Numbered from the stretch's first letter, positions 1,736-20,969 are shown. The stretch is 64,000 nucleotides of DNA from an uncultured Gemmatimonadales bacterium (GCA_963779755.1 CAVZZO010000003.1:384001-448000); one strand, 5' to 3'. Numbers and translations: made by a program. Notes: generated from the letters alone by a model not told the origin.

Positions 1736-1892
1736 CAGGTCCCCCCTGTTGCATGGTCAGCGGCAACGAAGTGCGCGTGTGCTGCAGCGCGATCCCTCAG
1801 GTTTTCACAAACTACGCTTCCACAGCCGCGCCGCTAGGTGGCCCGAGCGTGGGTCTACAGCCCGCGCGACCGGCCTGCAGAACGACGCGCTT

Positions 1893-2199
1893 GTTAGCTG
1901 CCGGCCGAGAGGACGCTACCTCTTCCGGCTGGGGACCCACGCTCGGAGGCACGGCCGCCGGCCGGAAGCCCAGCGGGGCGGAGGAAGATCGGATGCCTCC
2001 GAACCAGCTTGGGGCCTTCCGTGCCCCGAACGCCTCGCGGCCAGGAGTCTTGGGCGGCCCGGCGGAGTGTTCGATGCGACCCGCGCAAGGAGGCCGGTGC
2101 CGCCTCACGACGATCAAGCAGTTGAGGAAGCCCGGCGGCACCATCAGGAGCCCACCAAGAGATGAGCAACGGACAGCTTGGCTGGCTCGTGCAGCTAAC
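1893..2199 (-). other. Gene-less cassette family N1a (other copies 9193-9500, 17334-17637)
   Basis: About 305 bp between attC sites with no credible ORF; three near-identical copies, each with the same attC. Confidence 0.8.
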
Positions 2200-2322
2200 G
2201 AAGTGCGTTTCAGCGGCGGCGCGATGCCCGCTCCCCGACCGACGCTTCCGCAGTGCGACCGCACACGCCCGGGGATGCCCATCGGATAGACTGGCTCGTC
2301 CGCTGGAAACGCGAGTTAGACA

Positions 2323-2813
2323 GCGCAATCCAATGGGGACGAGCAATGACTTGGGCCCCTCGGTGCCGTGTTCTCGTGGTCCTTGCCGGTGCGAAATGAC
2401 TGAAAGTCCCGCAACTCACGCCGCTCATTCTCCTGTAGCTGGACGAGTTCTCTTACTCGCCAGATGGCCGATCTGCGGCCGTATCACCGTTAGCGGAAAC
2501 CTCGCCGTTGATGGAGGTCGATGACCAAGCTTCTCACCCTGTTCTCTCGAGGGGATCCTCAGTCGAGCCGATATATTTGCTCTGCCAAGCAACGACATAG
2601 CCCCATTCGCGATTCTTCATTATGAGAAGCAGAGAGAAGTACAGGTACTCCTGATCTCTTCTTTGCTGATCGACATCAGGAACAGCTCGTACTTTTGTGA
2701 CCGAAGGACACATACCGGGTCAAGGATGCGATTCCTGGCGCGTCCTCAAGGTGGATGCGGTCGGAGCGTGGCAGCGTGCTGTGGCTCTCTTGGCTCGAGA
2801 CGCTTCCCCCGCT
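2323..2813 (-). pseudogene. Degraded or error-rich copy of the cassette gene at 11968-12455
   Basis: Colinear with 11963-12500 but with many small deletions. Confidence 0.75.
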
Positions 2814-2947
2814 GGCTAACGAAGTGCGCGTGTGCTGCAGCGCGATCCCTCAGGTTCTCACAAACCTACGCTTCCACAGCCGCGGCGCCAGGAGGCCCGG
2901 GCGAGGGCCGGCGGTCCGCGCGACCGGCCTGCAGAACGACGCGCTTG

Positions 2948-3352
2948 TTAGGTTGCTGCAGGATGCCCGCTGCGCCGGCGCCATTCAAAGACGACGACCA
3001 GGGCGAGAACGAGCAGAATGGGAGCCGTCAGTACCCCTGGGGTATAGCCTCCTTGCTGCCAGGACCACAACGGATGACCGACGCCGTTGATGACTTCGAT
3101 GGTCACCCAGAACGTGACAATCGCTCCCGTCCCACGCCAGCCGCGCCTCACGGGCCAGATAAAGCACCAAACCCCAAAAGCAACGAGGGCGACATTGAGG
3201 ACCGCAAACCCGACCTGCCGGTTGCTCGACACTAAGCCGGTGAGAATGCGGGCTGGCGGGAAGGAGTCGTAGAGCTTGCCCAGATATTCCTCGACCGAGT
3301 GCGCTGCCTGGCCAAGTACCAGTGCTCCAAACGCCAAGTGAAAGCGAGACAT
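2948..3352 (-). CDS. Cassette: HXXEE-domain membrane protein (copy 1)
   Basis: HSVEE motif after TM1 and about 4 TM helices; the stop lies in the attC R'' box. Confidence 0.85.
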   Translation of the reverse strand: MSRFHLAFGALVLGQAAHSVEEYLGKLYDSFPPARILTGLVSSNRQVGFAVLNVALVAFGVWCFIWPVRRGWRGTGAIVTFWVTIEVINGVGHPLWSWQQGGYTPGVLTAPILLVLALVVVFEWRRRSGHPAAT

Positions 3353-3507
3353 GCTTGGCAGCAACCTAACGAAGTGCGCGTGTGCTGCAGCGCGATCCCT
3401 CAGGTTTGCACAGTCCTACGCTTCCTTAGCCGCGCCGCTAGGAGGCCCGAGCGAGGGCCGGCGACCCGCGCGACCGGCCTGCAGAACGACGCGCGTGTTA
3501 GACAGCG

Positions 3508-3750
3508 CTATCGCTGACCTTTGCGTTGTAGCACCCAAATGGCAATCAGGCACACTGGAGGAATCAAGAGGATTGCGGCGCCGCCAGTGAGGCCGGCCGG
3601 GTCGACACTGACTCCGCTCAGCCCGGGACCACTTGAGGGGAGATTGCTGAGCATGTTGATTGCACCAATGAGAATGGCACCTCCTGAGATCAGTACCCAG
3701 GCAACGCTCAGCCATACAATGCGGGATCTCGGCCAGGCACCGATCTTCAT
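3508..3750 (-). CDS. Cassette: small 2-TM hypothetical protein
   Basis: GGAGG RBS, fills the cassette, two hydrophobic segments. Confidence 0.75.
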   Translation of the reverse strand: MKIGAWPRSRIVWLSVAWVLISGGAILIGAINMLSNLPSSGPGLSGVSVDPAGLTGGAAILLIPPVCLIAIWVLQRKGQR

Positions 3751-3913
3751 GACTTGCCTCCTATTGATGCTCCGCGCTGGCTAACGGTCTGCGTTTCAGC
3801 GGCGGCGCGATGCCCCGCTCCCTCATAATCCTACGCTTCCTTACCGCGACCGCTAGATGTCCGAGCAATGCACCAGCGGCCTGCAGCACCGTGCCCGGCC
3901 GCTGCAAACGCTT

Positions 3914-4240
3914 GTTAGCTGCCGGCCGCAATGACATTCTCGGTTGCGATGACGCTGCCGGCAGGTGCGGAGTCCCCACCCCGGGAGGCCCGGCCGCCCC
4001 CTCGGAGCTCCGGCGGGGCGGAAGATCGCTGGACGCTTGTCCACCGGGAACGACGCTGACCCTGCCCCGACCGCCCCGCGGGGAGGGGCCCCGGGCGGCA
4101 TGGCGGAGCCTGCCAGACGACCCGCGCAAGGAGGCCGGTGCCGCCTCACCTCCGCCAACCAGCTGAGGAACTCCGGCGGCACCACCAGGAGCCCACCAAA
4201 AGATCAGCACTGGGAGGCCCGGCTGGCGCGTGCAGCTAAC
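3914..4240 (-). other. Gene-less cassette family N1b (related copies 4365-4690, 6082-6407, 15848-16170, 17766-18092, 20395-20769)
   Basis: About 325 bp (first cassette about 375 bp), no conserved ORF across copies, conserved GGTGCCGCC...GGCGGCACC stem. Confidence 0.8.
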
Positions 4241-4817
4241 GAAGTGCGTTTGAGCGGCGGCGCAATGCCCCGCGCTCTCACAAACCTACGCTTCCACAGT
4301 GCGGCCGCTAGATGCCGAGAACGGGCCAGCGGGCCGCGCCCCGGCCCGCCCGCTGGAAACGCTAGTTAGCTGCCGGCCGCATTGACATTCTCGGCTGCGA
4401 TGACGCTACCGGCAGGCCGGGGCCCCCACGCCGGGAGGCCCGGCCGCCCTCTCGGAGCTCCGGCGGGGCGGAGGATCGGCGGGCGCTGCCCAACGGGTAC
4501 GACGCTGACCCTGCCCCGACCGCCCCGCAGCAACGAGTTCTGGGCGGCATAGCGGAGCCTTCCAGACGACCCGCGCAAGGAGGCCGGTGCCGCCTCACCT
4601 CGACCAACCAACAGAAGGAGCTCCGGCGGCACCACCAGGAGCCCACCAAGAGATCAGCACTGGGCAGCCCGGCTGGCTCGTGCAGCTAACGAAGTGCGCG
4701 TGTGCTGCAGCGCGATCCCTCAGGTTCTCACAAACCTACGCTTCCACAGCCGCGCCGCTAGGAGGCCCGGGCGAGGGCCGGCGGTCCGCGCGACCGGCCT
4801 GCAGAACGACGCGCTTG

Positions 4818-5221
4818 TTAGGTTGCTGCAGGATGCCCGCTGCGCCGGCGCCATTCAAAGACGACGACCAGGGCGAGAACGAGCAGAATGGGAGCCGTCA
4901 GTACCCCTGGGGTATAGCCTCCTTGCTGCCAGGACCACAACGGATGACCGACGCCGTTGATGACTTCGATGGTCACCCAGAACGTGACAATCGCTCCCGT
5001 CCACGCCAGCCGCGCCTCACGGGCCAGATAAAGCACAAAACCCCAAAAGCAACGAGGGCGACATTGAGGACCGCAAACCCGACCTGCCGGTTGCTCGACA
5101 CTAAGCCGGTGAGAATGCGGGCTGGCGGGAAGGAGTCGTAGAGCTTGCCCAGATATTCCTCGACCGAGTGCGCTGCCTGGCCAAGTACCAGTGCTCCAAA
5201 CGCCAAGTGAAAGCGAGACAT
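4818..5221 (-). pseudogene. Cassette: HXXEE protein copy 2 (1-bp frameshift near 5001)
   Basis: Nearly identical to 2948-3352 but split into two ORFs. Confidence 0.8.
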
Positions 5222-5367
5222 GCTTGGCAGCAACCTAACGAAGTGCGTTTCAGCGGCGGCGCGATGCCCCGCTCCTCCACAATCCTACGCTTCCACAGCG
5301 CGACCGCTAGATCCGGGGGCAATGCACCAACAGGCAGCAGCACCGGCCCGCCCGCTGGAAACGCTAG

Positions 5368-5868
5368 TTAGGGTCGCAGGCGCTCGACACCCAAGTGAAC
5401 CGGTTTCCACGAGTCGAAACCGGTACCGATCAGCGCGCCGAGAGCACCCCACGTCAGGCCAGTACCGATTATGGCTCCGGCTTCCCCCTGACCTGCAGGT
5501 CGCTGCTCCGCTGTGCCGACCACATAGACCAAGGCCAGGCCGGCGCCCACGAGCGCACCGATCACCGCTCCTCGCCGTGCTTGGTTGCCTTGGCGTACTT
5601 CGACGAGGCTCAACCCGGCCGCGGGCCGGCGAATGGTGTCCGCGGCCCCCCTCGCAGTGCACGCGGGACTCGGGTAGCTGCAATACACGATAGTATCCGT
5701 CTGGGCACCGAGTGGCGACAGCAAACGCCCACGCGCTGGAGGAGCGAGGGACCACGTCAGACGCACCACACTCCCAACGGGGAGAACGGCTAGGGAGTCC
5801 CTCTTCTGGGCACCGGCAATCGCTGGCCACAGAAGGAGCAGGGCGACTGCAAAGAAGGCATGCCGCAT
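5368..5868 (-). CDS. Cassette: secreted or membrane hypothetical protein with Gly-rich C-terminal helices
   Basis: Signal peptide MRHAFFAVALLLLWPAIAGA and GAVIGALVGAG glycine-zipper-like segments; the stop lies in R''. Confidence 0.75.
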   Translation of the reverse strand: MRHAFFAVALLLLWPAIAGAQKRDSLAVLPVGSVVRLTWSLAPPARGRLLSPLGAQTDTIVYCSYPSPACTARGAADTIRRPAAGLSLVEVRQGNQARRGAVIGALVGAGLALVYVVGTAEQRPAGQGEAGAIIGTGLTWGALGALIGTGFDSWKPVHLGVERLRP

Positions 5869-6534
5869 GTGCCGGGCCCGTGGAAGGAGACCTTCTGCCA
5901 CTACTTGTTCTCCGTCCTCCAGCCGTGACCTAGTCGACTTGCTGCGCCCTAACGACCTGCGTTTCAGCGGCGGCGCGATGCCCCGCCCTTTCACAATCCT
6001 ACGCTTCCACAGCGCGGCCGCTAGATGTCCGAGCAATGCATCAGCGGGCGGCAGCACCGTGCCCGGCCGCTGCAAACGCTTGTTAGCTGCCGGCCGCAAT
6101 GACATTCTCGGCTGCGATGACGCTGCCGGCAGGTGCGGAGCCCCCGCGCCGGGAGGCCCGGCCGCCCACTCGAAGCCCCGGCGGGGCGGCAGATCGCTGG
6201 ACGCTGTCCACCGGGAATGAAGCTGACCCTGCCCCGACCGCCCCGCGCCGCGGTGCCTTGGGCGGCATGACGGAGCCTACCAGACGACCCGCGCACGGAG
6301 TCAGGTGCCGCCTCGGCTCCGCCAACCAACTGAGGAGCTCCGGCGGCACCACCAGGCGCCTACCAAGAGATCAGCACTGGGCGGCCCGGCTGGCGCGTGC
6401 AGCTAACGAAGTGCGCGTGTGCTGCAGCGCGATCCCTCAGGTTCTCACAAACCTACGCTTCCACAGCCGCGGCGCCAGGAGGCCCGGGCGAGGGCCGGCG
6501 GTCCGCGCGACCGGCCTGCAGAACGACGCGCTTG

Positions 6535-6939
6535 TTAGGTTGCTGCAGGATGCCCGCTGCGCCGGCGCCATTCAAAGACGACGACCAGGGCGAGAACGAG
6601 CAGAATGGGAGCCGTCAGTACCCCTGGGGTATAGCCTCCTTGCTGCCAGGACCACAACGGATGACCGACGCCGTTGATGACTTCGATGGTCACCCAGAAC
6701 GTGACAATCGCTCCCGTCCCACGCCAGCCGCGCCTCACGGGCCAGATAAAGCACCAAACCCCAAAAGCAACGAGGGCGACATTGAGGACCGCAAACCCGA
6801 CCTGCCGGTTGCTCGACACTAAGCCGGTGAGAATGCGGGCTGGCGGGAAGGAGTCGTAGAGCTTGCCCAGATATTCCTCGACCGAGTGCGCTGCCTGGCC
6901 AAGTACCAGTGCTCCAAACGCCAAGTGAAAGCGAGACAT
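6535..6939 (-). CDS. Cassette: HXXEE protein copy 3
   Basis: Same protein as 2948-3352. Confidence 0.85.
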   Translation of the reverse strand: MSRFHLAFGALVLGQAAHSVEEYLGKLYDSFPPARILTGLVSSNRQVGFAVLNVALVAFGVWCFIWPVRRGWRGTGAIVTFWVTIEVINGVGHPLWSWQQGGYTPGVLTAPILLVLALVVVFEWRRRSGHPAAT

Positions 6940-7082
6940 GCTTGGCAGCAACCTAACGAAGTGCGCGTGTGCTGCAGCGCGATCCTTCAGGATTTCACAA
7001 ACCTACGCTTCCTTAGCCGCGCCGCCAGGAGGCCTAGGAAGGGCCGGCGGACCGCGCGACCGGCCTGCAGAACGACGCGCTT

Positions 7083-7376
7083 GTTAGCAACCAGCTGCGC
7101 ACGGCGGCCTAGGCTAGCGCGGAGCCCGCGCGCGAAGCCCTGGCCGCCGCTGGGAACGGTGCGGCGCGGGGACGGCCCGGTGGCGTGGAACTCTGACGGC
7201 ACCTGCCCTGCCCCGACCGCGCCGGGCTCCAGAAGCCCTGGGCGGCGGATTCGTTTGAGCCTTTCTGCACGGAGGCGGGGCCGCCCGCAAGGAGTTGCTC
7301 TCGGGTTCCTGAGCTCCGCGGCCCTGATGGGGCCCACCAAAGAGACCCGCTGCGGTGCCTCGCTTGTGTTGCTAAC
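7083..7376 (-). other. Gene-less cassette family N2 (copies 7503-7799, 9967-10263, 11182-11482, diverged 14306-14612)
   Basis: About 295-305 bp with GTTAGCAAC...GTTGCTAAC ends and no conserved ORF. Confidence 0.8.
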
Positions 7377-7927
7377 GAAGTGCGCGTGTGCTGCAGCGCG
7401 ATCCTTCAGGATGTCACAAACCTACGCTTCCTTAGCCGCGCCGCCAGGAGGCTCGGTCGATGCCAGGCAGCCAGCGCGCCCGGCCTGCAGAACGACGCGC
7501 TTGTTAGCAACCAGCTGCGCACGGCGGCCTAGGCTAGCCCGGAGCCCGCGCCCCGAAGCCCTGGCCGCCCGCTGGGAACGGTGCGGCGCGGGGACGGCCC
7601 GGTGGCGTGGAACTCTCACGGCACCTGCCCTGCCCCGACCGCGCCGGGCTCCAGGAGCCCTGGGCGGCGGATTCGTTTGAGCCTTTTTGCACGGAGGGCG
7701 GGGCCGCCCGCAAGGAGCTGCTCTCGGGTTCCTGAACTCCGCGGCCCTCATGGGGCCCACCAAAGAGACCCGCTGCGGTGCCTCGCTTGTGTTGCTAACG
7801 AAGTGCGTTTCAGCGGCGGCGCGATGCCCCAGCCCTTTCACAATCCTACGCTTCCACAGCGCGACCGCTAGATGCCGGGGCTAGGCACCAAAAGGCAGCA
7901 GCCTCGGCCCGTCCGCTGGAAACGCTA

Positions 7928-8144
7928 GTTACAAGGCAGCGCGCTCTCGCCCGCGAGCGGGACCGAACCAAGATCGCTGGGCCGCCGCAAGGAGCGTTGG
8001 GCGCCGGCACCCGCCCGAACCTTCCCGATGCGCTTTGATGCCGGGCGGCCCGAACAGCGCCCTCACGGAGCTTTGGCGGCCACCACCAGATGCTTCTCAC
8101 AACGGCAAAGAATCAAGAACAGTCCGGCTTGCCTGCCGTGTAAC
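7928..8144 (-). other. Gene-less cassette family N3 (copies 14740-14951, 16991-17207; relatives 10836-11053, 11614-11828)
   Basis: About 215 bp with no credible ORF. Confidence 0.8.
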
Positions 8145-8270
8145 GAAGTGCGCGTGTGCTGCAGCGCGATCCTTCAGGATGTCACAAACCTACGCTTCCT
8201 TAGCCGCGCCGCCAGGAGGCTCGGTCGATGCCAGGCAGCCAGCGCGACCGGCCTGCAGAACGACGCGCTT

Positions 8271-8594
8271 GTTATGTGGCAACCACGCGGGCCGACGCTC
8301 CACACCGCGCGGCGATCTCTTCGGCCGCCTCGCAGAGCCCAGGGCGACTCCCAGGCCCGCATGCCCGGCCGCGTCAGAGCACTGAGGGCGCCGGCGCGAT
8401 GATCACACCCGAAAATGCTTGGGACCTTGCCCTGCCGGCGCCCATACGGGGCCGCGGCGCCACCACTGGATCGGAGCCCGCTGGGAATCCTGGCGGCCAG
8501 CGCCACAGCGGATCACAAAAGGCCACAAGCGAGGAGCCGTTCTGACTGCTGTACAGAAAGACCCAGGAACAGTCCGGCTTCCTTGCCACATAAC
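8271..8594 (-). other. Gene-less cassette family N4 (second copy 10390-10709)
   Basis: About 320 bp with a 12-bp terminal IR GTTATGTGGCAA; indels between copies break any frame. Confidence 0.75.
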
Positions 8595-8755
8595 GAAGTG
8601 CGTTTCAGCGGCGGCGCGATGCCCCGCTCCTACATGATCCTACGCTTCCATAGCGCGACCGCTAGATCCTCCGGAGATGAACCACGAGGCCGCAGCCCCG
8701 GCCCGCCCGCTGGAAACGCTAGTTAGACAGCAGGCAAGTGAGAGGCCGAGAAGCT

Positions 8756-9010
8756 TCATTCCGATTTCAGCTCAGTGCCGCCACGAAATGCCTTGAGCTC
8801 GGCGCCAGGAGTATCGAACGCGGAGATGGTGATCTCGGAACCCTGGAGCTCAATCAGCAGCGGCGTACCGGGAGTTCCGGTGACCTCAACTTCGAGATCA
8901 CCGTGTGAACCGATCGTGTATTCACCTGTCCAAGGCTCAAGGATCACCTTGCGGGCCTCGTCGTCAAGGTTCGCCAGTCGGAGCCGGAAGGTGATCGGTT
9001 TACTGGACAT
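8756..9010 (-). CDS. Cassette: hypothetical 84-aa protein
   Basis: Fills the cassette and has protein-like composition. Confidence 0.75.
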   Translation of the reverse strand: MSSKPITFRLRLANLDDEARKVILEPWTGEYTIGSHGDLEVEVTGTPGTPLLIELQGSEITISAFDTPGAELKAFRGGTELKSE

Positions 9011-9626
9011 AGCGGGCCGTTCCACGTTGGCAATTGGCTACAATGCGAAGGGTCCTGCTGGCTAACGAAGTGCGCGTGTGCTGCAGCGCGATCCCTCAGG
9101 TTTTCACAAACCTACGCTTCCACAGCCGCGCCGCTAGGTGGCCCGAGCGTGGGTCTACAGCCCGCGCGACCGGCCTGCAGAACGACGCGCTTGTTAGCTG
9201 CCGGCCGAGAGGACGCTACCTCTTCCGGCTGGGGACCCACGCTCGGAGGCACGGCCGCCGGCCGGAAGCCCTAGCGGGGCGGAGGAAGATCGGATGCCTC
9301 CGAACCAGCTTGGGGCCTTCCGTGCCCCGAACGCCTCGCGGCCAGGAGTCTTGGGCGGCCCGGCGGAGTGTTCCATGCGACCCGCGCAAGGAGGCCGGTG
9401 CCGCCTCACGACGATCAAGCAGTTCAGGAAGCCCGGCGGCACCATCAGGAGCCCACCAAGAGATCAGCAACGGACAGCTTGGCTGGCTCGTGCAGCTAAC
9501 GAAGTGCGCGTGTGCTGCAGCGCGGTCCTTCAGGATTTCACAAACCTACGCTTCCACAGCCGCGCCGCCAGGAGGCCGGAGTGTGGGCCAGGGGCCTGCG
9601 CGACTGGCCTGCAGCACGACGCGCTT

Positions 9627-9840
9627 GTTATATGGCGAAACGCTCTCGGCCTCAACCGGAACCGGGGCCAAATGCCTGGGCCGCCTCACGGAGACCGGGG
9701 CGCCGGCACCTGTTGGAACTTCTGCCGCGCTTTGATGCATGGCGGCCCGAACAGCGCCCTCAAGGAACTTGGGCGGCCACCACCAGATGCTGTTGTACAT
9801 CAAAAGAGAACGAGCAGTCCAGCCCGTTCGACCATATAAC
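9627..9840 (-). other. Gene-less cassette family N5, related to N3 (copies 19256-19469, 19596-19809)
   Basis: 214 bp, apparently identical copies. Confidence 0.8.
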
Positions 9841-11967
9841 GAAGTGCGCGTGTGCTGCAGCGCGATCCTTCAGGATGTCACAAACCTACTCTTCCTTAGC
9901 CGCGCCGCCAGGAGGCTCGGTCGATGCCAGGCAGCCAGCGCGCCCGGCCTGCAGAACGACGCGCTTGTTAGCAACCAGCTGCGCACGGCGGCCTAGGCTA
10001 GCCCGGAGCCCGCGCCCCGAAGCCCTGGCCGCCCGCTGGGAACGGTGCGGCGCGGGGACGGCCCGGTGGCGTGGAACTCTCACGGCACCTGCCCTGCCCC
10101 GACCGCGCCGGGCTCCAGGAGCCCTGGGCGGCGGATTCGTTTGAGCCTTTTTGCACGGAGGGCGGGGCCGCCCGCAAGGAGCTGCTCTCGGGTTCCTGAA
10201 CTCCGCGGCCCTCATGGGGCCCACCAAAGAGACCCGCTGCGGTGCCTCGCTTGTGTTGCTAACGAAGTGCGCGTGTGCTGCAGCGCGATCCCTCAGGATT
10301 CCACAAACCTACGTTTCCTTAGCCGCGCCGCTTGGAGGCCTCAGGAAGGGCCGGCGGCCCGCGCGACCGGCCTGCAGAACGACGCGCTTGTTATGTGGCA
10401 ACCACGCGGGCCGACGCTCCACACCGCGCGGCGATCTCTTCGGCCGCCTCGCGGAGCCCAGGGCGACTCCCAGGCCCGCATCCCGGCCGCGTCAGAGCAC
10501 GAGGGCGCCGGCGCGATGATCACACCCGAAAGTGCTTGGGACGTAGCCCTGCCGGCGCCCATACGGGGCCGCGGCGGCACCACTGGATCGGAGCCCGCGA
10601 GGAATCCGGGCGGCCAGCGCCGACGATAACAAAGCACGAGGAACCAGGAGCCGGCAGCTTCCTCAACAGAAAAGGAACCAGGAACAGTCCGGCGTCCTTG
10701 CCACATAACGAAGTGCGTTTCAGCGGCGGCGCGATGCCCCACTCCCTCACAATCCTACGCTTCCACAGCGCGACCGCTAGACCGCCGGGAGATCCCCAAG
10801 CGGCGGCAGCACCGGCCCGCTCGCTGGAAACGCTAGTCAGCCGCAACGCGCTCTCCGCCACGTGCGGAGCGGAGCCAAGATCCCTGGGCCGCCTCACGGA
10901 GATCGGGGCGCGGCACCGGTTAGAACTTCTGACGCGCTTTGATGTGCTGCGGCCGGAAAAGAGCCCTCACGGAGCTACGGCGGCCACCGCCAGATGCTTA
11001 TCACGAACGGAAGCGAATCATAGGAACAGTCCTCGGCTTGCTTGCGGTGTAACGAAGTGCGCGTGTGCTGCAGCGCGAACCCTCAGGTTTTCACAAACCT
11101 ACGCTTCCATAGCCGCGCCGCTAGGAGGCTTCGGGTCGATGCCAGGCAGCCCGCGCGACCGGCCTGCAGAACGACGCGCTTGTTCAGAGACCGGCTGCGC
11201 ACGGCGGCCTGAGCTAGATCGGAGCCCGCGCCCCGAAGCATTGGCCGCCCGCTGGGAACGGTGCGGCGCGGGGACGGCCCGGTGGCGTGGAAAACGCCGG
11301 GCACCTGCCCTGCCCCGACCGCGCCGGGCTCCAGGAGCCCTGGGCGGCGGAATCGCTTTGAGCCTTTTTCCACGGGGGGCTGGGCCGCTCGCAAGGAGCT
11401 GCTCTCGGATTCCTGAAATCGGCGGCCCGCCTGGGGCCGCCTCAAAGAAGACCCGCAGCCGTGCCTGGCTTGTGTTGCTAACGAAGTGCGTTTGAGCGGC
11501 GGCGCGATGCCTCAGGCCCTCACAAACCTACGTTTCCACAGCCGCGACCGCTAGGAGGGCCGGGAGATGCCCCAAGCGGCCGGCAGCGGCCGGCCCGCTA
11601 GCTGGAAACGCTAGTTACAGCTGCAACGCGCTCTCCGCCACGTGCGGAGCGGAGCCAAGATCCCTGGGCCGCCTCACGGAGATCGGGGCGCCGGCACCGG
11701 TTAGAACTTCTGATGCGCTTTGATGTGCGGCGGCCGGAAAAGCGCCCTCGCTGGAGCTCCGGCGGCCACCACCAGATGCTTTTCACAACAGAAGAGAAAG
11801 GAACAGTCCGGCTTGCTTGCGGTGTAACGAAGTGCGTTTCAGCGGCGGCGCGATGCCCCGCTCCCTCACAATCCTACGCTTCCGCAGCGCGACCGCTAGA
11901 TGCCCGGGGATGCACGATCAGAGAGCAGCCCCGGGCTCGTCCGCTGGAAACGCTAGTTAGACAGCGG

Positions 11968-12455
11968 CTAAATCCAATGGGGACGAGCAATGACTTCGGG
12001 CCCCCTCGGTGCCGTGTTCTCGTGGTCCTTGCCGGTGCGAAATGACTGAAAGTCCCGCAACTCACGCCGCTCATTCTCCTGTAGCTGGACGAGTTCTCTT
12101 ACTCGCCAGAAGATGGCCCATCCTGCGGCCGTATCACCGTTAGCGGCAAACCTCGCCGTTGATGGAGGTCGATGACCAAGCTTCTCATCCTGTCTCTTCT
12201 CGAGGGCATCCTCAGTCGAGCCCATATATTTGCCCTGCCAAGCAACGACATAGCCCCATTCTGCGAGATCCTCATTATGAGAAGCATAGAGAAGTAACAG
12301 GTACGTCCTGATCTCTTCTTCTGCTCATCGACATCCCGGAACAGCTCGTACTTTTGTGACCCGAAGGACACATACCCGGTCAAGGATGCGATTCCTGGCG
12401 CGTCCTCAAGGTGGATGCGGGGTACCGGAGCCAGGATGGCAAAATCCACTGCCAT
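11968..12455 (-). CDS. Cassette: hypothetical protein (apparent frameshifts)
   Basis: GGAGAGG RBS then MAVDFAILAPVP...; continues in ORF 11968-12225. Confidence 0.6.
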
Positions 12456-12634
12456 GACCTCTCCTTCTTGGCTTCTGAAAGAACGTGATCCCACACCGCT
12501 GGCTAACGAAGTGCGTTTCAGCGGCGGCGCGATGCCCCGCTCCCTCACAATCCTACGCTTCCACAGCGCGGCCGCTAGATGTTTGGAGTTGCGCCAGGCG
12601 GCAGCAGCCCCGGCCCGTCCGCTGGAAACGCTAG

Positions 12635-12867
12635 TTACGCAGCAGCCTGAAGGTCGTTCGGAGTGAGCCCGGTATGCTTCGAGATTCGGGCGAGCATTCT
12701 CTCGTTCGATGCCATTTCCTCTTGGTCAGTGGAAGGCAAAGACGAAGTCAGGCCAGCCTGCCCGACTCAACGTCCGGTGGGAGCCGGATTCGCGCTTGAC
12801 AGACCAGCCGATCCGGAGAAGAGCCGCCAAGACCCGTCGGGCCTTCGGCAGCTCCCCAGCTACTCAT
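12635..12867 (-). CDS. hicA: Cassette: HicA-family toxin (apparent frameshifts)
   Basis: Hand translation gives ..RRVLAALLRIGWSVKRESGSHRTLSRAGWPDFVFAFH..RMLARISKHTGLTPNDL, with the GSH motif. Confidence 0.8.
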
Positions 12868-13068
12868 GCGGCCTGAAAGCTAAGGTTCAGGAGTTCGGGG
12901 ACAGCCTCGCCATGCTCCAAGCGTTCGGCCAAGGAACGCAAGGCCAGGGCTTGGACCTCGCACGGCGTCAGGCCGCGTGACCCCGTAGGCCATCACGCCC
13001 GGGAGGTCCTGGACCTCCGCAAGCCAACGGCCATCAGTCTCCTGTTCGACCTCGATACGGAGAATCAC
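12864..13068 (-). CDS. hicB: Cassette: HicB-family antitoxin (apparent frameshift)
   Basis: IEVEQETDGRWLAEVQDLPGVMAYGVT is the HicB N-terminal signature; ATGA overlap with hicA. Confidence 0.85.
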
Positions 13069-13259
13069 GGCGTTCCTCCAAGGCTAGTTTGCTTGGCCCA
13101 AATCTAACTGGGAAGCGGCCTTGCTGCGTAACGAAGTGCGTTTCAGCGGCGGCGCGATGCCCCGCCCTTTCACAATCCTACGCTTCCTTACCGCGACCGC
13201 TAGATCCCCGGGAAATGCGCCAGCAGGCTGCAGCCCCGGCCCGCCCGCTGGAAACGCTA

Positions 13260-13596
13260 GTTAAATGGCAGCCGTCCACGAGAGGTGATCGATTCCGTTC
13301 CCCGATCTCCCCAACGCACGACTCCCCGGCCTTTTACCCCGCTAGCGGAGGACTGTGGCTCCGAGCGCTTGGATTTTGGATCTGGGCAACCCAGCCTGGG
13401 AGCAGACGTCTCTACGCGCCCCCTGAGCCCGCTACGAGATCCGGGGCCCGCTGAGCGCCCGCCGGAATGCACTAATCCAGGATTCCACCTGCGCTCGTGC
13501 CAAAGGCCTCATTCCTGAGCCGCCCAGTTGGCCGGGCCTTCCTCCGAAAGGAGCACCTCCTGGATCAGCCAAGGACGGCCGGCACGTCCATTTAAC
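13260..13596 (-). other. Gene-less cassette family N7 (second copy 19937-20266)
   Basis: About 330 bp; both copies have the same attC; no conserved ORF. Confidence 0.7.
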
Positions 13597-13742
13597 GAAG
13601 GGCGTTTCAGCAGCGGCGCGATGCCCCGCACCCTCAGCAATCCTACGCTTCCACAGCGCGAGCGCTAGATGCTTGGGAGACGCACCCAGTGGCGGCGGCA
13701 CCGGCCCGGCTGCTGCAAACACTGTTAGACAGCACTGCGCGA

Positions 13743-14164
13743 CTATCCGGTCTCAAAGGATATACCCGAGAAGTCGGGGGTCCGGTTGATCAGCGACTGG
13801 AAGCTCGCATCGCCCTCTACCACCGAAGCCCAGTCCTCATTGGCCGGGAAATCCATCGACGAGTGGTCCACTTCCACTATTCCTGGCGCAGGTCCAAAGC
13901 CCAACTCCACTACGAGGCGACCAATGAGCGCGTCCTGGGCCTGCGGAGCTTCGCTTTCGCGATCAGAGAATTGCCGGACTATAAGCAATGTCGCGTAGCC
14001 CTCATCTTCTTGGATCTGAACCGAAGCGAAGGTAGCAATCTGAGACTTCCCGCCGGAGTGCACCAGAACACGCGCCAGGTCGGCCACGGATCTAAGTGCG
14101 CCGGATTGAGGCCGTGGCGTTCAAGAGCTAACAGGAACTCAGGCCTAGCCCGAAATGCTTCCAT
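13743..14164 (-). CDS. Cassette: hypothetical protein (apparent frameshift)
   Basis: Two overlapping ORFs (13979-14164, 13743-14087) together fill the cassette. Confidence 0.6.
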
Positions 14165-15099
14165 TGGTGCTGGCTAAACGAAGTGCGCGTGCGCTGCAGC
14201 GCGAACCCTCAGGTTTTCACAAACCTACGCTTCCACAGCCGCGCCGCTAGGAGGCTGTCGGGTGGGTCGGCGGCCCGCGCGACCGGCCTGCAGAACGACG
14301 CGCTTGTTAGCAACCGGCTGCGATGACGCCGCCTGAGCCACATCGGAGCCCCGCCCGGAGCATTGGCCGCCCGAGCGGAACCTCGCGGCGCGGCGGCCTA
14401 GCCGGTGGTCGGGACAACGCCCGGGACCTACCCGCCCCGACCGCGCCGATCTCCAGGAGAGCTGGGCGGCGGAACCGCACCTCAGCGATTCCACGGCGCC
14501 TGGGTGCTGGGCCGTCTTGCGGTGCTCCGAAATCTCCTGGAAATCAGGCGGCCCGCCAGGAGCCGCCTCAAAGAAAGCACCCGGACAGCCCTGGCTGGCT
14601 CGTGTTGCTAACGAAGTGCGTTTCAGCGGCGGCGCGATGCCCCAGCCCTTTCACAATCTACGCTTCCACAGCGCGACCGCTAGATGCCGGGGCGAGGCAC
14701 CAAAAGGCAGCAGCCTCGGCCCGTCCGCTGGAAACGCTAGTTACAAGGCAGCGCGCTCGCGAGCGGGACCGAACCAAGATCGCTGGGCCGCCGCAAGGAG
14801 CGTTGGGCGCCGGCACCCGCCCGAACCTTCCCGATGCGCTTTGATGCCGGGCGGCCCTAACAGCGCCCTCACGGAGCTTTGGTTGGCCACCACCAGATGC
14901 TTCTCACAACGGCAAAGAATCAAGAACAGTCCGGCTTGCCTGCCGTGTAGCGAAGTGCGCCTCAGCTGCGGCGAAGAACCTGACTTCCTTCACAAACCTA
15001 CGTTTCCGCAGCGCGGCCGCTAGATCAGCGGGAGATGCGCCAAGCGGTCTCGCACCGGCCCGTCAGATGGAGGCGCTAGTTAGGCCGTGGCTCCGCGCG

Positions 15100-15690
15100 T
15101 TAATAGCCTTTCGGTTGCCATGCCGATGATCGTATCACGATTCGTGCAGGCTTCACACCGTCGCCCGACACCATAACGGTAAGGAAAACCACCCTGCTTT
15201 TCGAAGAGATCGTTATAGCGATACGGCAGTCCTTGTACATGGGGAATGAACGTGACTGTCTAGTCCTGAAGGATATCAAGTAGAGGAAATACCGCACCCC
15301 TCGAGCGAGATCCTGGGGTCGGTAGGCTCAGAACCGCTGACAGAAACCCCGTTAGGATACTTCACTATACTGGGACCTAACGGCATGCCCGGCATCGTCG
15401 AGATCTGAAAGTTGGTAAGGTAGGCCCGGCACGCCTTAGCTAGACGGAAGGACTTAGAGCTCTGACCTTGACTCGGAGATAGATCCCTGCCGCTGGAAGG
15501 CCCGTGGTTCTCCGGGTCAGTGTGATGAGACTTTCACATTCCCGGAATGTCAGGTTGAGCTATGAGCGCAACCACCATAGCCAGCACCTGGCTCGGCACG
15601 CAAAGCAATGAGGAAGCTGCAGAGGACGACAAGAAATGTCGGGAGAAGCTGGGCGAACGAAGCTGCTTGCTTAGGAGCGATCACGGTCTC
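15100..15690 (-). pseudogene. Cassette: lower-GC fragmented hypothetical gene
   Basis: About 640-bp lower-GC cassette with only short ORF pieces. Confidence 0.35.
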
Positions 15691-16338
15691 GGATGATCTT
15701 GGCCTCTCCCACGGCCTAACGGTCTGCGTTTCAGCGGCGGCGCGAGGCCCCGCTCTCTCATAATCCTACGCTTCCTTAGCGCGATCGCTAGATGCCTGGG
15801 CAAGGCACCGGCGGGCTGCAGCACCGTGCCCGCCCGCTGAAACGCTTGTTAGCTGCCGGCCGCAATGCCATTCTCGGCTGCGATGACGCTGCCACAGGTG
15901 CGGAGCCCCCAGCCGGGAGACCCGGCCGCCCGCTCGGAGCTCGGCGGGGCGGCAGACGCTGGACGCTAGTCCACCGGGAACGACGCTGACCTTGCCCCGA
16001 CCGCCCCGCGGGGAGGGGCCTCGGGCGGCATGGCGGAGCCTGCTAGACGACCCGCGCAAGCAGGCCGGTGCCGCCTCACCAGCGCCAACCAGCTGAGGAG
16101 CTCCGGCGGCACCACGAGGAGCCCACCAAGAGATCAGCACTGGGCGGCCCGGCTGGCGCGTGCAGCTAACGAAGTGCGCGTGTGCTGCAGCGCGATCCCT
16201 CAGGTTCTCACAAACCTACGCTTCCATAGCGCGCCGCCAGAAGGCCGCATGGCACCAACTGGCCGCAGCACCGGCCTGCAGAACGACGCGCTCGTTAGGC
16301 CGCAACGCGGGCACGGCCCGGAAACTCGACCTGCGAGT

Positions 16339-16834
16339 CTAGAGCTCCACGAATACCCGCGTGGCGGAATACATCAATGCTGCCGCCTCGCCGCATTGGC
16401 TTGAGAACTGGTCCACCCTACTGCCGAAACCCAGCTTCTCATAGAATTGACGGCTGTTGACCATTTCGGAAAATGCTATGAGGAGATCTCGAAGCTGGCG
16501 GACGCTGGACCATCGAACTGGCTAACCTGAGGGAACCACCCATCTGAGGCATGTCGCAAGCGCGCGCGGCAATGTAGTAGAAGCATCTGTGTGAAGCTGC
16601 ACTTCGAACCTTGCCTCATTCGAGCAGGCGTCGAGCGTCCTAACTCCTACCATTGCACCTCGCCTCTGGAAGTCCAGGCCACGGCTCGTCGAAACAGCGA
16701 ATCAGCTGTTCAGGCGCTCATCGACCTCCTCTCCGAGATCTCGCTGACCCTTCCCGAGAGCCAGAAAAGTCGCATACCTGGACGTGCATGCTCAGCTTGC
16801 GGATCGCAGACCCAAGGTAGTCATAAAGCTCCAT
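16339..16834 (-). pseudogene. Cassette: fragmented GNAT-like acetyltransferase
   Basis: The minus strand at 16427-16450 encodes QFYEKLGF, a GNAT C-terminal motif; the frames are broken. Confidence 0.45.
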
Positions 16835-18231
16835 CTGGTTCCGTGGGTATAGTGGCGCCTAACGAAGTGCGTTTCAGCGGCGGCGCGATGCCCCAGCCCT
16901 TACACAATCCTACGCTTCCACAGCGCGACCGCTAGATCCGGGGCTAGGCACCAAAAGGCAGCAGCCTCGGCCCGTCCGCTGGAAACGCTAGTTACAAGGC
17001 AGCGCGCTCTCGCCCGCGAGCGGGACCGAACAAAGATCGCTGGGCCGCCGCAAGGAGCGTTGGGCGCCGGCACCCGCCCGAACCTTCCCCATGCGCTTTG
17101 ATGCCGGGCGGCCCGAACAGCGCCCTCACGGAGCTTGGGCGGCCACCACCAGATGCTTCTCATAACGGCAAAGAATCAAGAACAGTCCGGCTTGCCTGCG
17201 GTGTAACGAAGTGCGCGTGTGCTGCAGCGCGATCCCTCAGGTTTTCACAAACCTACGCTTCCACAGCCGCGCCGCTAGGTGGCCCGAGCGTGGGTCTACA
17301 GCCCGCGCGACCGGCCTGCAGAACGACGCGCTTGTTAGCTGCCGGCCGAGAGGACGCTACCTCTTCCGGCTGGGGACCCACGCTCGGAGGCACGGCCGCC
17401 GGCCGGAAGCCCTGGCGGGGCGGAGGAAGATCGGATGCCTCCAACCAGCTTGGGGCCTTCCGTGCCCCGAACGCCCCGCGCCAGGAGTCTTGGGCGGCCC
17501 GGCGGAGTGTTCCATGCGACCCGCGCAAGGAGGCGGTGCCGCCTCACGACATCAAGCAGTTCAGGAAGCCCGGCGGCACCATCAGGAGCCCACCAAGAGA
17601 TCAGCAACGGACAGCTTGGCTGGCTCGTGCAGCTAACGGTCTGCGTTTCAGCGGCGGCGCGATGCCCCGCTCCCTCATAATCCTACGCTTCCTTACCGCG
17701 ACCGCTAGATGTCCGAGCAATGCACCAGCGGCCTGCAGCACCGTGCCCGGCCGCTGCAAACGCTTGTTAGCTGCCGGCCGCAATGACATTCTCGGTTGCG
17801 ATGACGCTGCCGGCAGGTGCGGAGTCCCCACCCCGGGAGGCCCGGCCGCCCCCTCGGAGCTCCGGCGGGGCGGAAGATCGCTGGACGCTTGTCCACCGGG
17901 AACGACGCTGACCCTGCCCCGACCGCCCCGCGGGGAGGGGCCCCGGGCGGCATGGCGGAGCCTGCCAGACGACCCGCGCAAGGAGGCCGGTGCCGCCTCA
18001 CCTCCGCCAACCAGCTGAGGAACTCCGGCGGCACCACCAGGAGCCCACCAAAAGATCAGCACTGGGAGGCCCGGCTGGCGCGTGCAGCTAACGAAGTGCG
18101 CGTGTGCTGCAGCGCGATCCCGACTTCCTTCACAAACCTACGTTTCCGCAGCGCGGCCGCTAGATCCCTCGGAGATGCCCCACCCGGCGGCAGCACCGGC
18201 CTGCAGAACGACGCGCTTGTTACACAGCACC

Positions 18232-18501
18232 CTAGAGGTCTTGGATCAGCCGCTCGTACTCGTCGTGGGAGCCAATCCAAAACCAAAGAATGAGCTCGCC
18301 CTCGCGCACGCCAAGAGCGCGATACCCCAGACTGACCCGGGCGGAGTAGATCGGCTGTGTGGCGTGGACTGGCTTGAAATGCAGGCTTGGGTGCTGCGGG
18401 TCGTCACGGAATTGCTGATAGGCCTTGCGGGCTCGCTCCTGCACATGGACCGGTAAGGCCCCGAACGCCTTCCGGAACCGGGCCGTGGTCCTGGAGATCA
18501 A
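18232..18501 (-). CDS. Cassette: RelE/ParE-like toxin
   Basis: TTG start overlapping the antitoxin stop; FRDDPQHPSLHFK..YRALG..WFWIGSHDEYER signature. Confidence 0.85.
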   Translation of the reverse strand: MISRTTARFRKAFGALPVHVQERARKAYQQFRDDPQHPSLHFKPVHATQPIYSARVSLGYRALGVREGELILWFWIGSHDEYERLIQDL

Positions 18502-18716
18502 AGCCGGTCGGGATCTAGAGCCTCTGATCGGCCGGCCCGATGCTCCTCCAGGGCCTCCTGGGCCAGCCTCTGCAGCTGATCTCCAGAGGCACCCAAGAGG
18601 GCTTCCCACCGCGCATCGGCGGCCAATTCTTCCAGGATCGCGGCGGCAAGCTCGTCCTGGTCCTTGGGGGGGAGCCGGGAGGCCACTTCAAAGGCCTTCT
18701 TCAGGTTACGGGTCAT
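18498..18716 (-). CDS. Cassette: cognate antitoxin
   Basis: 72-aa acidic protein directly upstream of the toxin and translationally coupled to it. Confidence 0.8.
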   Translation of the reverse strand: MTRNLKKAFEVASRLPPKDQDELAAAILEELAADARWEALLGASGDQLQRLAQEALEEHRAGRSEALDPDRL

Positions 18717-18721
18717 GCTGG

Positions 18722-18751
18722 ATGATATGGCAAAGGAGAGCGGCGCGCTAG
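18722..18751 (-). promoter_or_regulatory. Putative TA-cassette promoter (leaderless)
   Basis: CTAGCG-N18-TATCAT-N5-ATG on the minus strand. Confidence 0.5.
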
Positions 18752-18901
18752 CCGCGCCTCAGTGCTGTGTAACGAAGTGCGTTTCAGCGGCGGCGCGATG
18801 CCCCGCTCCCTCACAATCCTACGCTTCCACAGCGCGACCGCTAGATGCCGGGGGGATGCACCATCAGGCAGCAGCCCCGGCCCGCTCGCTGGAAACGCTA
18901 G

Positions 18902-19105
18902 TTATACGGAACCGCGACGGACCTCTTCGAGCACATCGCGGGCTCGACCATAATCTTCCTCGGCGACTACCCATACGCTGAACGGGTTCCCGTGAATGCC
19001 GGACAGAGCCTCGCCGCGTACGACGGCCGGAATACCCGCAGCCTCAAGGGCCAGCTTCAGGCTGTATGCATCTGTCGCCACTGATGACCGGAGTAGTTCA
19101 CGCAT
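18902..19105 (-). CDS. Cassette: DUF2007-like putative signal transducing protein
   Basis: AYSLKLALEAAGIPAVVRGE...VWVVAEEDYGRARDVL pattern. Confidence 0.8.
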   Translation of the reverse strand: MRELLRSSVATDAYSLKLALEAAGIPAVVRGEALSGIHGNPFSVWVVAEEDYGRARDVLEEVRRGSV

Positions 19106-20762
19106 CCGTATTGCCTGGGTGCCGTATAACGAAGTGCGCGTGTGCTGCAGCGCGGTCCTTCAGGATTTCACAAACCTACGCTTCCACAGCCGCGCCGCCA
19201 GGAGGCCGGAGTGTGGGCCGGGGCCTGCGCGACTGGCCTGCAGAACGACGCGCTTGTTATATGGCGAAACGCTCTCGGCCTCAACCGGAACCGGGGCCAA
19301 ATGCCTGGGCCGCCTCACGGAGACCGGGGCGCCGGCACCTGTTGGAACTTCTGCCGCGCTTTGATGCATGGCGGCCCGAACAGCGCCCTCAAGGAACTTG
19401 GGCGGCCACCACCAGATGCTGTTGTACATCAAAAGAGAACGAGCAGTCCAGCCCGTTCGACCATATAACGAAGTGCGCGTGTGCTGCAGCGCGGTCCTTC
19501 AGGATTTCACAAACCTACGCTTCCACAGCCGCGCCGCCAGGAGGCCGGAGTGTGGGCCAGGGGCCTGCGCGACTGGCCTGCAGAACGACGCGCTTGTTAT
19601 ATGGCGAAACGCTCTCGGCCTCAACCGGAACCGGGGCCAAATGCCTGGGCCGCCTCACGGAGACCGGGGCGCCGGCACCTGTTGGAACTTCTGCCGCGCT
19701 TTGATGCATGGCGGCCCGAACAGCGCCCTCAAGGAACTTGGGCGGCCACCACCAGATGCTGTTGTACATCAAAAGAGAACGAGCAGTCCAGCCCGTTCGA
19801 CCATATAACGAAGTGCGTTTCAGCGGCGGCGCGATGCCCCGCCCTTTCACAATCCTACGCTTCCTTACCGCGACCGCTAGATCCCCGGGAAATGCGCCAG
19901 CAGGCTGCAGCCCCGGCCCGCCCGCTGGAAACGCTAGTTAAATGGCAGCCGTCCACGAGAGGTGATCGATTCCGTTCCCCGATCTCCCCAACGCACGACT
20001 CCCCTACCCCGCTCGCGGAGGACTGTGGCTCCGAGCGCTTGGACTTCGGATCTGGGCAACCCAGCCTGGGAGCGACGTCTCTACGCGCCCCCTGAGCCCG
20101 CTACGAGATCCGGGGCCCGCTGAGCGCCCGCCGGAATGCACTAATGCAGGGGTTCTACCTGCGCTCGTGCCAAAGGCCGCATTCCTGAGCCGCCCAGTTG
20201 GCCGGGCCTTCCTCCGAAAGGAGCACCTACTGGATCAGCCAAGGACGGCCGGCACGTCCATTTAACGAAGTGCGTTTCAGCGGCGGCGCGATGCCCCGCT
20301 CCCTCACAATCCTACGCTTCCTTACCGCGACCGCTAGATGTCCGAGAAATGCACCAGCGGGCTGCAGCACCGTGCCCGCCCGCTGCAAACGCTTGTTAGC
20401 TGCCGGCCGCAATGACAATTTCGGGTGCGATGACGCTGCCGGTATGTGCGGAGCCCCCGCGCCGGGAGACTACGGGCCGCACGGCGCGCTGCAACCGGCA
20501 GAAGCCGGCGCCGTCGGCGGCCAGCTGACGCGCTAGGAGAAGGCAGCGACGCTCTCCGAACCCGCTCGGACTGCACCTTCCTTGCCATGGAGCCGCCCCG
20601 CGGAGAGAAACCTTGGGCGGCATCGCGGAGCCTTCCAGGCGACCCGCCGCAAGGAGGCCTGGTGCCGCCTCACCGCTACCAACGCAACTGCAGAGTTCCG
20701 GCGGCACCACCAGAGCGCTCTCACCAAGAGATCAGCACTGGAGCGGCCCGGCTGGCGCGTGC

Positions 20763-20830
20763 AGCTAACTATGAATTCGATTGCGCGCATGGGCAGGGGG
20801 TCGGCGCCTGAGATGTCTTTCTAACCAGGC
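20763..20830 (-). other. attI site
   Basis: The first cassette starts at GTTAGCT (20763-20769) with no attC upstream; a second GTTAGA lies about 55 bp further upstream. Confidence 0.7.
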
Positions 20831-20969
20831 AGGCTCTGCCGCAATCAAGCACCCATCGACGTAGCACTTAGGCCCTTGGTTGATCTTTGCTGTCGTTCCG
20901 GAAAAGCGCAAGAGGTGTCGATGTAGGAGGCCCGGAGTCTCTGTTACAGGTAACAGCGCCCTCCTCCTG

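Follow-up and report, generated by a model that had tools for sequence, protein, structure and literature searches.

We analysed a stretch of DNA of 64,000 nucleotides (nt) from an uncultured Gemmatimonadales bacterium (GCA_963779755.1 CAVZZO010000003.1:384001-448000; hereafter the window), which opens with an integron: a cassette array with 41 attC sites, followed by a putative attI region and the integrase gene intI (table 1). The element is a sedentary chromosomal integron, and most of its cassettes belong to recurring families in which no gene could be recognized. The integrase matches TIGR02249 with a score of 448 bits (cut-off 265). Both intI and the cassettes are read from the minus strand, and the 3' end of intI, with its stop codon, faces the array, indicating that intI transcription runs towards attI. 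On the minus strand, the junction with the first cassette (G↓TTAGC, 20769-20764) lies 375 nt past the intI stop codon, and the first copy of cassette family F1 (described below) aligns from 20762. Tandem copies of a 26-bp unit (4.9 copies, 85% matches) occupy 20963-21086, in the interval that separates the intI stop codon from the attI crossover; these repeats are candidate accessory sites that could bind the integrase or a regulator.

Using an nhmmer profile made from the window's own repeats, we detected 41 attC sites of about 127-143 nt and no further site in the window at E ≤ 1. A covariance model built from 33 of these sites recovered the identical set, all on the plus strand. The 40 full-length sites scored 90-154 bits, the 41st is cut by the start of the window, and the next-best match scored 13.9 bits. 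This truncated site (1-99) forms the left end of the array, which must therefore continue past the window's left end. A preliminary description of this DNA had placed the array at 1893..20769; the integron itself is real, and its start lies further to the left. The attC sites are imperfect palindromes with RYYYAAC/GTTRRRY boxes and are similar to one another, their pairwise likeness across the array being 64-99%. They fold into imperfect hairpins in which the TAAC/GTTA boxes are paired and which contain bulged bases and an asymmetric internal loop.

The extent of a single cassette could be deduced from duplicated copies. In every family, and in plus-strand coordinates, the identity of a body follows that of the attC site to its left and not that of the site to its right (0.99 with 0.98, 0.71 with 0.67). 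For bodies b02 and b17, identity is 0.99 in the body, 0.98 in the left attC, and 0.63 in the right attC. In all ten duplicate pairs examined, identity extends leftwards as far as the TAAC box of the left-hand attC; to the right, it reaches at least the TAAC box of the next attC. These patterns indicate that a cassette consists of a body and its left-hand attC, that the crossover occurs at the TAAC box, and that cassettes are read on the minus strand. The credible open reading frames (ORFs) of the cassettes are all found on the minus strand, including an HXXEE protein present in three copies and an 80-amino-acid ORF with an AGGAGG site.

When the 41 inter-attC bodies were all compared with one another by BLAST, 26 of them fell into recurring families of nine (F1), eight (F3), five (F2), two (F4), and two (F7) members. 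The count given in the preliminary description, where these families were named N1, N3/N5, N2, N4, and N7, respectively, was thus reproduced. The 26 gene-less cassettes account for 63% of the cassettes and 52% of the array bases, and in each of them a GC-rich body 200-370 nt long is accompanied by an attC of its own, about 138 nt in length. The average GC content of these bodies is 0.70 (range 64-75%), compared with 0.69 for the chromosome and 0.60 for the other cassettes; the match with the chromosome fits a long residence in the lineage. The remaining bodies are a three-copy HXXEE gene cassette, a two-copy cassette (b03 and b24), and ten singletons. Bodies b03, b30, and b32, which are outside the 26, likewise lack a convincing ORF.

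Table 1.— Features of the integron. All coordinates refer to the window; cassettes are given as attC plus body.
Feature	Coordinates	Strand	Remarks
Cassette array	1..20768	-	41 attC sites and bodies; nhmmer, covariance model, and unit definition
Putative attI region	20769..21143	-	From intI stop codon to first cassette junction
intI, integron integrase, 339 amino acids	21144..22163	-	TIGR02249; Pfam Phage_integrase and SAM_4
F1a	1761..2192	-	attC 1761-1897, body 1898-2192
F1b	3779..4233	-	Body 3919-4233, identical to 17771-18085
F1b	4234..4683	-	Body 4370-4683
F1b	5947..6400	-	Body 6087-6400
F1a	9060..9493	-	Body 9198-9493
F1b	15714..16163	-	Body 15853-16163
F1a	17201..17630	-	Body 17339-17630
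F1b	17631..18085	-	Body 17771-18085
F1c	20260..20768	-	First cassette after attI; 36-nt insertion
F2	6951..7369	-	Body 7088-7369
F2	7370..7792	-	Body 7508-7792, identical to 9972-10256
F2	9834..10256	-	Body 9972-10256
F2	11047..11475	-	Body 11187-11475
F2, most diverged copy	14173..14605	-	Body 14311-14605
F3	7793..8137	-	Body 7933-8137
F3	9494..9833	-	Body 9632-9833
F3	10703..11046	-	Body 10841-11046
F3	11476..11821	-	Body 11619-11821
F3	14606..14944	-	Body 14745-14944
F3	16857..17200	-	Body 16996-17200
F3	19124..19462	-	Body 19261-19462; in tandem with F3 copy 19463..19802
F3	19463..19802	-	Body 19601-19802
F4 (expanded F3 relative)	8138..8587	-	Body 8276-8587
F4	10257..10702	-	Body 10395-10702
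F7	13126..13589	-	Body 13265-13589; no link to F1-F4 detected
F7	19803..20259	-	Body 19942-20259
Hairpin and T-rich tract	9808-9829, 19437-19458, 19777-19798, 10677-10693	-	Overlaps shared GCCGGACTGTT block

The gene-less families share several motif blocks. Exact matches to CTGCCCCGACCGC occur eight times (four in F1 and four in F2), those to GGCGGC(C)ACCACCAG 11 times (five in F1 and six in F3), and those to AACAGTCCGGC six times (four in F3 and two in F4). The block CCGC(GC)AAGGAG has 13 exact matches in the array (seven in F1, three in F2, and three in F3) and one outside it, at 41736. The sharing of these blocks had been noticed in the preliminary description; within the array, all four are on the plus strand and confined to gene-less families. 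Profile searches extended these links: the F1 profile matches F2 over almost its full length (E = 4.6e-8) and the F2 profile matches F1a (E of about 1e-10), the link between F1 and F3 is weaker (E = 6e-4), and F3 and F4 are linked with E = 0.004. Multiple alignments contain collinear blocks in F1 plus F2 and in F3 plus F4, and no link of F7 to F1-F4 was detected by either profile searches or alignment. F1-F4 are thereby linked into one superfamily, in which F1 and F2 are strongly, F3 and F4 clearly, and F1 and F3 weakly connected, with F7 standing apart. No short-period internal tandem repeat common to a family was found in the bodies examined.

A strand bias in short purine-rich words was also observed. 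GGAG and AGGAG are two- to six-fold in excess, on one strand only, in the bodies of F1, F2, and F3 (1898-20768). For GGAG on the plus strand, which is CUCC on the cassette-sense strand, 11 occurrences were counted in F3 (4.5 ± 1.9 expected), 14 in F2 (8.2 ± 2.5 expected), and 36 in the other cassettes (32.5 expected); the z-values of such comparisons are inflated because the copies are related. A sponge similar to CsrB/RsmZ, or an anti-Shine-Dalgarno element, was considered for these words and dismissed, the predicted unpaired probability of GGAG being 0.29-0.35, compared with 0.34-0.39 elsewhere in the bodies.

Two attC subtypes, whose arms differ complementarily (GCGCGTGTGCTGCAG...CTGCAGAACGACGCGC versus GCGTTTCAGCGG...CCGCTGGAAACGC), were distinguished between 1761 and 20399. 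The subtype is not linked to the body family: F1a and F1b carry different subtypes, and the same is true of the F3 subfamilies. This uncoupling indicates that attC arms have been exchanged or converted. As to the cassettes outside the gene-less families, the three copies of the HXXEE-family cassette (138 amino acids, minus strand) are found at 2814-3363, 4684-5232, and 6401-6950, and the middle one has a one-base deletion in a C run. The b03 and b24 cassettes (2320-2813 and 11961-12500) are paralogues with 88% identity. A 131-amino-acid minus-strand ORF is present in b24, and b03, which has no ORF of similar length, looks like a decayed copy.

The length criterion used for non-coding cassettes in Vibrio (no ORF longer than 150 bp; Boucher et al. 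2006) is uninformative at a GC content of 64-75%. High GC keeps most frames open, so that nearly every gene-less body is free of stop codons in at least one frame and exceeds this length, and absence of an ORF is unusable as a test. We analysed the spread of GC content among codon phases in 90-nt windows, a test that tolerates frameshifts. The spread was 0.09-0.16 in F1, F2, F3, F4, and F7, compared with 0.13-0.15 in shuffled sequences, 0.16 in attC sites, and 0.36-0.51 in intI, tetR, and enolase; eight of nine cassette ORFs had values of 0.17-0.39, and the b05 ORF had 0.09. In addition, substitutions showed no phase preference in any of eight ungapped alignment blocks, and none of 86 stop-to-stop frames matched Pfam.

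One candidate small ORF was found, a 33-codon GTG frame on the plus strand of F1, with AAGGAGG 3-4 nt upstream of its start. It is intact in five of the nine F1 copies, is stopped after 22 codons in b02, and is shifted in three; it is absent from F2 and F3. According to the preliminary description, a conserved ORF with a ratio of nonsynonymous to synonymous substitution rates (dN/dS) below 1 would count against a structured element, and none was found: this sole candidate gives 1.4-1.6 between F1a and F1b, with similar values in out-of-frame controls. A search of 1.84 billion representative proteins with the 33-residue peptide yielded only two proteins, in each of which it is the C-terminal end of a longer predicted protein. 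The part of predicted protein P0004 upstream of the peptide is translated attC plus body. P0004 derives from a diverged F1 copy from elsewhere, which is collinear in the 33-codon frame with a single one-residue gap, and the "in-frame" conservation of the attC part of P0003 and P0004 equals or exceeds that of the body part.

Other frames were also compared with the protein collection, in which neither the F1 minus-strand frame nor the F3 part of the plus-strand frame 10332-11495 had a match. The plus-strand frame 6099-6677 had two matches. One is P0001, which comes from another assembly and is 99% identical; the other, P0002, is the window's own and corresponds to the plus-strand translation of 9043-9732 across an attC, an F1 body, a second attC, and an F3 body. 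P0002 results from spurious gene calling in non-coding DNA of the array. According to tblastn, none of P0001, P0003, and P0004 is encoded identically in the window; P0001 and P0003 show that other arrays nearly identical to this one exist. We conclude that the 26 bodies are non-coding, in agreement with the preliminary description.

Indels between copies are mostly 1, 2, or 4 nt long, and the earlier statement that indels destroy reading frames holds only in part. Some of the one-base indels may be assembly errors in repeated DNA. This is suggested by the one-base deletions of an insertion sequence (IS) copy at the left end of the window (see below) and by near-identical cassette copies, among which one-base indels are about as frequent as substitutions. 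On the other hand, P0001 aligns with 6117-6674 without gaps and with 99% identity over 186 residues, which counts against pervasive assembly error. Whole-body GC3 and indel lengths, which frameshifting assembly errors could blur, were demoted as evidence for non-coding status in favour of the codon-phase test in 90-nt windows.

Folding of single sequences gave little signal. Eighteen folds (nine representatives, both strands) were compared with dinucleotide shuffles (30 each); 17 of them had minimum free energy z-scores from -1.6 to +1.0, the exception being b28 on the minus strand (-3.5), and four coding bodies ranged from -1.1 to +0.7. At the alignment level (alifold, relative to 40 column shuffles each), the sense/antisense z-scores were -0.7/-1.2 for F1, -2.35/-1.4 for F3, -1.6/-3.2 for F2, and -2.2/-2.9 for F1 plus F2, compared with -5.2/-4.0 for an attC control. 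The combined F1 plus F2 alignment (A4) has 40 predicted pairs (93.7% paired). Ten of the 40 change on both sides, compared with 6.8 ± 1.3 in shuffled alignments and 3-6 when partners were slid, in a structure that was predicted from the same alignment and that represents only three or four independent lineages.

Two short GC helices of F1 plus F2 are the only ones predicted for either strand; the register of the inner helices differs from one strand to the other. Helix 1 (A4 columns 56-62 with 99-105) is a 7-bp hairpin in which F1 and F2 differ by one compensatory change (U:A to G:C), and helix 2 (columns 146-151 with 254-259) is a long-range pairing of 6 bp that is invariant in 12 of 12 sequences. 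In F3, whose sense-strand structure includes several conserved G:U pairs, double-sided changes affect seven of the 51 predicted pairs, four of them in a terminal helix that is an extension of the attC R-box stem. This 10-nt extension flanks every cassette, coding ones included: a cassette's own flanks are complementary at 6.6 of 10 positions (6.3 in gene-less and 7.2 in other cassettes), compared with 3.45 for mismatched cassettes. The earlier claim that diverged copies keep their inverted repeats holds only in part: one of the repeats is the stem extension common to all cassettes, and inside the bodies only the two short GC helices are robust. Conserved structure in the bodies, as RNA or single-stranded DNA and on either strand, is possible on the basis of these predictions. 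We also considered that the bodies might be degenerate attC sites, and rejected this: the best covariance-model match in a gene-less body had E = 5.5. Rfam 15 had no match at E ≤ 1 in 1-21200, so the gene-less families match no described RNA family there, the outcome on which the preliminary description had made their novelty depend; for the whole window, two transfer RNAs (tRNAs) were the only hits at gathering score.

Promoter- and terminator-like signals were also analysed. A scan of 1800-21200 for the sigma-70 consensus, which may not fit this phylum, detected one site, at 16447, outside the gene-less families. Terminator-like sites numbered 10, compared with 15.5 ± 4.3 in shuffled sequences. 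In one F3 subfamily, and in a single F4 copy, a hairpin followed by a T-rich tract is found at the start of the sense strand (table 1). It was considered as an intrinsic terminator and discarded, since it is not kept across subfamilies and terminator-like sites are not over-represented.

With respect to distribution, no copy of the families was found in the 43 kb of the window outside the array, nor in two further loci, L001 and L002, in which only short matches at chance level occurred; the best outside match of a gene-less body had E = 0.003 over 27-29 nt. A blastn search of a plasmid collection with 7.9 kb of the array gave no match, and the protein-level traces of the families are P0001, P0003, and P0004 only. 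L001 and L002 had been retrieved from a genome collection with a degenerate 23-nt attC-centre pattern. The match in L001 (Arachnia) was discarded as fortuitous. L002 is a contig from a metagenome-assembled genome of an uncultured Gemmatimonadales; it shares with the window this type of attC (two sites) and an IS with 99% identity, and no copy of F1, F2, or F3 was found in it. As the one piece of related DNA retrieved, L002 also makes it probable that the host belongs to this order. The gene-less families are paralogous within the array and, in the collections covered, restricted to one lineage.

The IS adjoins an attC in both records (about 104-1185 in the window and 10097-11187 in L002), and in L002 it encodes a 317-amino-acid transposase with HTH_38 and rve domains. 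Six one-base deletions and one substitution separate the window copy from that of L002; either the former is a pseudogene, or these differences point to misassembly of repeated DNA. On the other side of the integron, intI is separated by a rhodanese-domain gene and a TetR-family gene from a DDE_3/HTH transposase gene (355 amino acids, 24729-25796) and a tRNA gene (26656-26729), both of which are less than 5 kb from intI.

The cassettes flanking duplicated copies differ from copy to copy, indicating that cassettes moved singly. Based on the boundaries at the crossover box, these differing neighbours, and the tandem identical copies near attI, amplification of the gene-less families by the integrase, as whole single cassettes, is the best-supported interpretation. 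As to why the families persist, we put the probability at roughly 0.5 that they are lineage-specific, cheap, self-propagating passengers, either cassette parasites or near-neutral hitch-hikers. The integrase would excise a cassette at the conserved crossover box and reinsert a copy, and repeated reinsertion would raise copy number over time within the array; the conserved GC-rich inverted repeats and motif blocks would be features at the nucleic-acid level, of unproven role. We infer both that amplification is replicative and integrase-driven and that no host function is needed. Bodies can also diverge faster than their own attC, which suggests weak constraint on them: F1c and F1b are 73-75% identical in the body and 84-94% in the attC, and b28 and the other F2 copies 67-77% and 84-90%, respectively. 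The restriction to one lineage and the precedent of the Vibrio non-coding cassettes (PMC1382264) likewise fit the passenger interpretation.

Several observations suggest a constraint that a neutral passenger would not need, and weigh against this interpretation. Despite an overall likeness of only about 60%, F1 and F2 retain invariant blocks and two perfectly conserved helices. Folding at the alignment level somewhat exceeds that of column shuffles, with z-scores down to -3.2, and GGAG occurs 41 times on the plus strand of F1, compared with 17.6 ± 3.9 expected. Gene conversion among copies could mimic such constraint.

Among other explanations, the bodies might be structured non-coding RNAs, transcribed most simply from the minus strand, by read-through from intI or from a cassette promoter, and with a modular fold that would regulate genes of the integron or the host. 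The integron-encoded small RNA sRNA-Xcc1 of Xanthomonas would be a precedent for an RNA gene in a cassette. We regard this as rather unlikely. The compensatory change in the 7-bp hairpin, the invariant long-range helix, the double-sided changes in A4, the alignment z-scores of -2.2 to -3.2 for F1 plus F2, F2, and F3 in one orientation or the other, and the G:U pairs of F3 speak for it, but single sequences fold no better than their shuffles in nearly all cases, F1 alone remains at -0.7 and -1.2, and the inner helices change register between strands. More than half of the double-sided F3 pairs are attC stem extension, few lineages were available to a structure derived from the alignment on which it was scored, no Rfam family matches, and bodies sometimes outpace their attC in divergence. 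Of the idea put forward in the preliminary description, a library of structured RNAs, the non-coding nature of the cassettes, their interrelation, and their amplification by the integrase are supported; the conserved pairing is weak (z about 0 for single sequences and -0.7 to -3.2 for alignments). It is similarly doubtful that F1-F4 form a modular superfamily of functional structured RNA (cassette-sense strand) or single-stranded DNA (ssDNA; recombinogenic strand) as the majority cargo of the integron; the functional core of this superfamily would then consist of the conserved GC helices plus the GGAG/CUCC blocks found on one strand. The narrower possibility that GC hairpins on the recombinogenic strand (plus, bottom) aid attC folding or synapsis, thereby raising the excision or insertion of their own cassette, is very improbable in our opinion. 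The coding cassettes of the same array manage without such hairpins and the bodies contain no attC-like match, even though the two robust helices are strand-symmetric inverted repeats, as a DNA-level feature predicts, attC sites as similar as these could mispair across cassettes, and the plus-strand z-score of F1 plus F2 is -2.9.

The bodies could also be promoters or other cis-regulatory cassettes that drive or insulate their neighbours deep in the array, as in Vibrio superintegrons. An array of more than 41 cassettes would require internal promoters, and the hairpin and T-rich tract at the F3/F4 sense start speak for this explanation, but this hairpin is not kept in all F3 subfamilies, terminator-like sites are no more frequent than in shuffled sequences, and the single sigma-70 site is outside the gene-less families, although this in-silico test is weak either way. 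Bodies of 64-75% GC seem unlikely as sigma-70 promoters, and we consider the explanation improbable. Least plausible of all would be small or degraded protein genes, either the 33-codon frame of F1 or a longer one that sequencing errors have interrupted. The 33-codon frame is complete in five F1 copies and preceded by a well-placed AAGGAGG, one-base indels in repeats may be assembly errors, and P0004 is collinear apart from one residue; against this, dN/dS does not differ from its controls, the frame is shifted or absent in other copies and families, the GC phase is flat, the non-coding attC part of P0003 and P0004 is as well conserved "in frame", and the peptide was found, among 1.84 billion representatives, only as the C-terminal end of two longer predictions.

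Gene-less cassettes have been catalogued in Vibrio. In the extracts of Boucher et al. (2006; PMC1382264) considered here, non-coding cassettes make up 6-49% of arrays, with 45 copies of a single family in V. vulnificus CMCP6. These Vibrio families are described there as lineage-restricted, conserved over their full length, and devoid of a codon-like mutation pattern, and they were proposed to be selfish elements, or promoters or RNAs useful to the integron (PMC1382264). The present families resemble them in being gene-less, paralogous within one array of one lineage, and conserved along their full length with no codon-like pattern, but they reach 63% of cassettes and 52% of bases, their bodies have 64-75% GC in a host of about 69% GC, four families share collinear blocks, and intI runs towards attI. 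The novelty assumed in the preliminary description is weaker than stated there, since paralogous non-coding cassettes and the selfish and regulatory-RNA alternatives are already present in the same extracts (PMC1382264). The array is a more extreme example of an already known phenomenon and not a new kind.

According to extracts of Blanco et al. (2024; PMC11014356), most of 29 gene-less Vibrio cassettes have promoter activity, as revealed by reporters and 5' RACE; these promoter cassettes are AT-rich, and in-silico promoter prediction was reported to be unreliable for them. The cassettes described here are likewise short and ORF-less and reside in a large chromosomal array, but they are GC-rich and, by sequence alone, lack a sigma-70-like site (compare PMC11014356). 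The atypical layout with intI directed towards attI has been described for Treponema (PMC3607928, in part); the likeness concerns this platform layout only, and the phylum differs. Repeated structured motifs in integron-like settings may be ssDNA sites rather than RNAs, as discussed for the DUF1874 motif in a section of Weinberg et al. (2017; PMC5737381), whereas the bodies here are separate from attC and not recognized by the attC model. Integrons are listed for Gemmatimonadota in the portion of a review used here (PMC8618304), and a literature search covering a limited set of papers, some in extract, revealed nothing on gene-less cassette families in this phylum.

The role of non-coding cassettes has been an open question since the Vibrio catalogue. 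To our knowledge, only a promoter role has experimental support, in Vibrio and Treponema alone. The array described here provides a second, phylogenetically distant, and extreme case, with 63% of cassettes gene-less, GC-rich bodies, and an intI gene directed towards attI. It also illustrates that gene callers translate bodies and attC sites into spurious proteins, such as P0002 from this window. If the bodies are selfish, they would be a clean example of parasites of a recombination platform. If they are transcribed structured RNAs or recombination helpers, integrons would carry non-coding function, and, should F1-F4 be a functional superfamily, a chromosomal integron would be a library chiefly of non-coding elements and not of genes.

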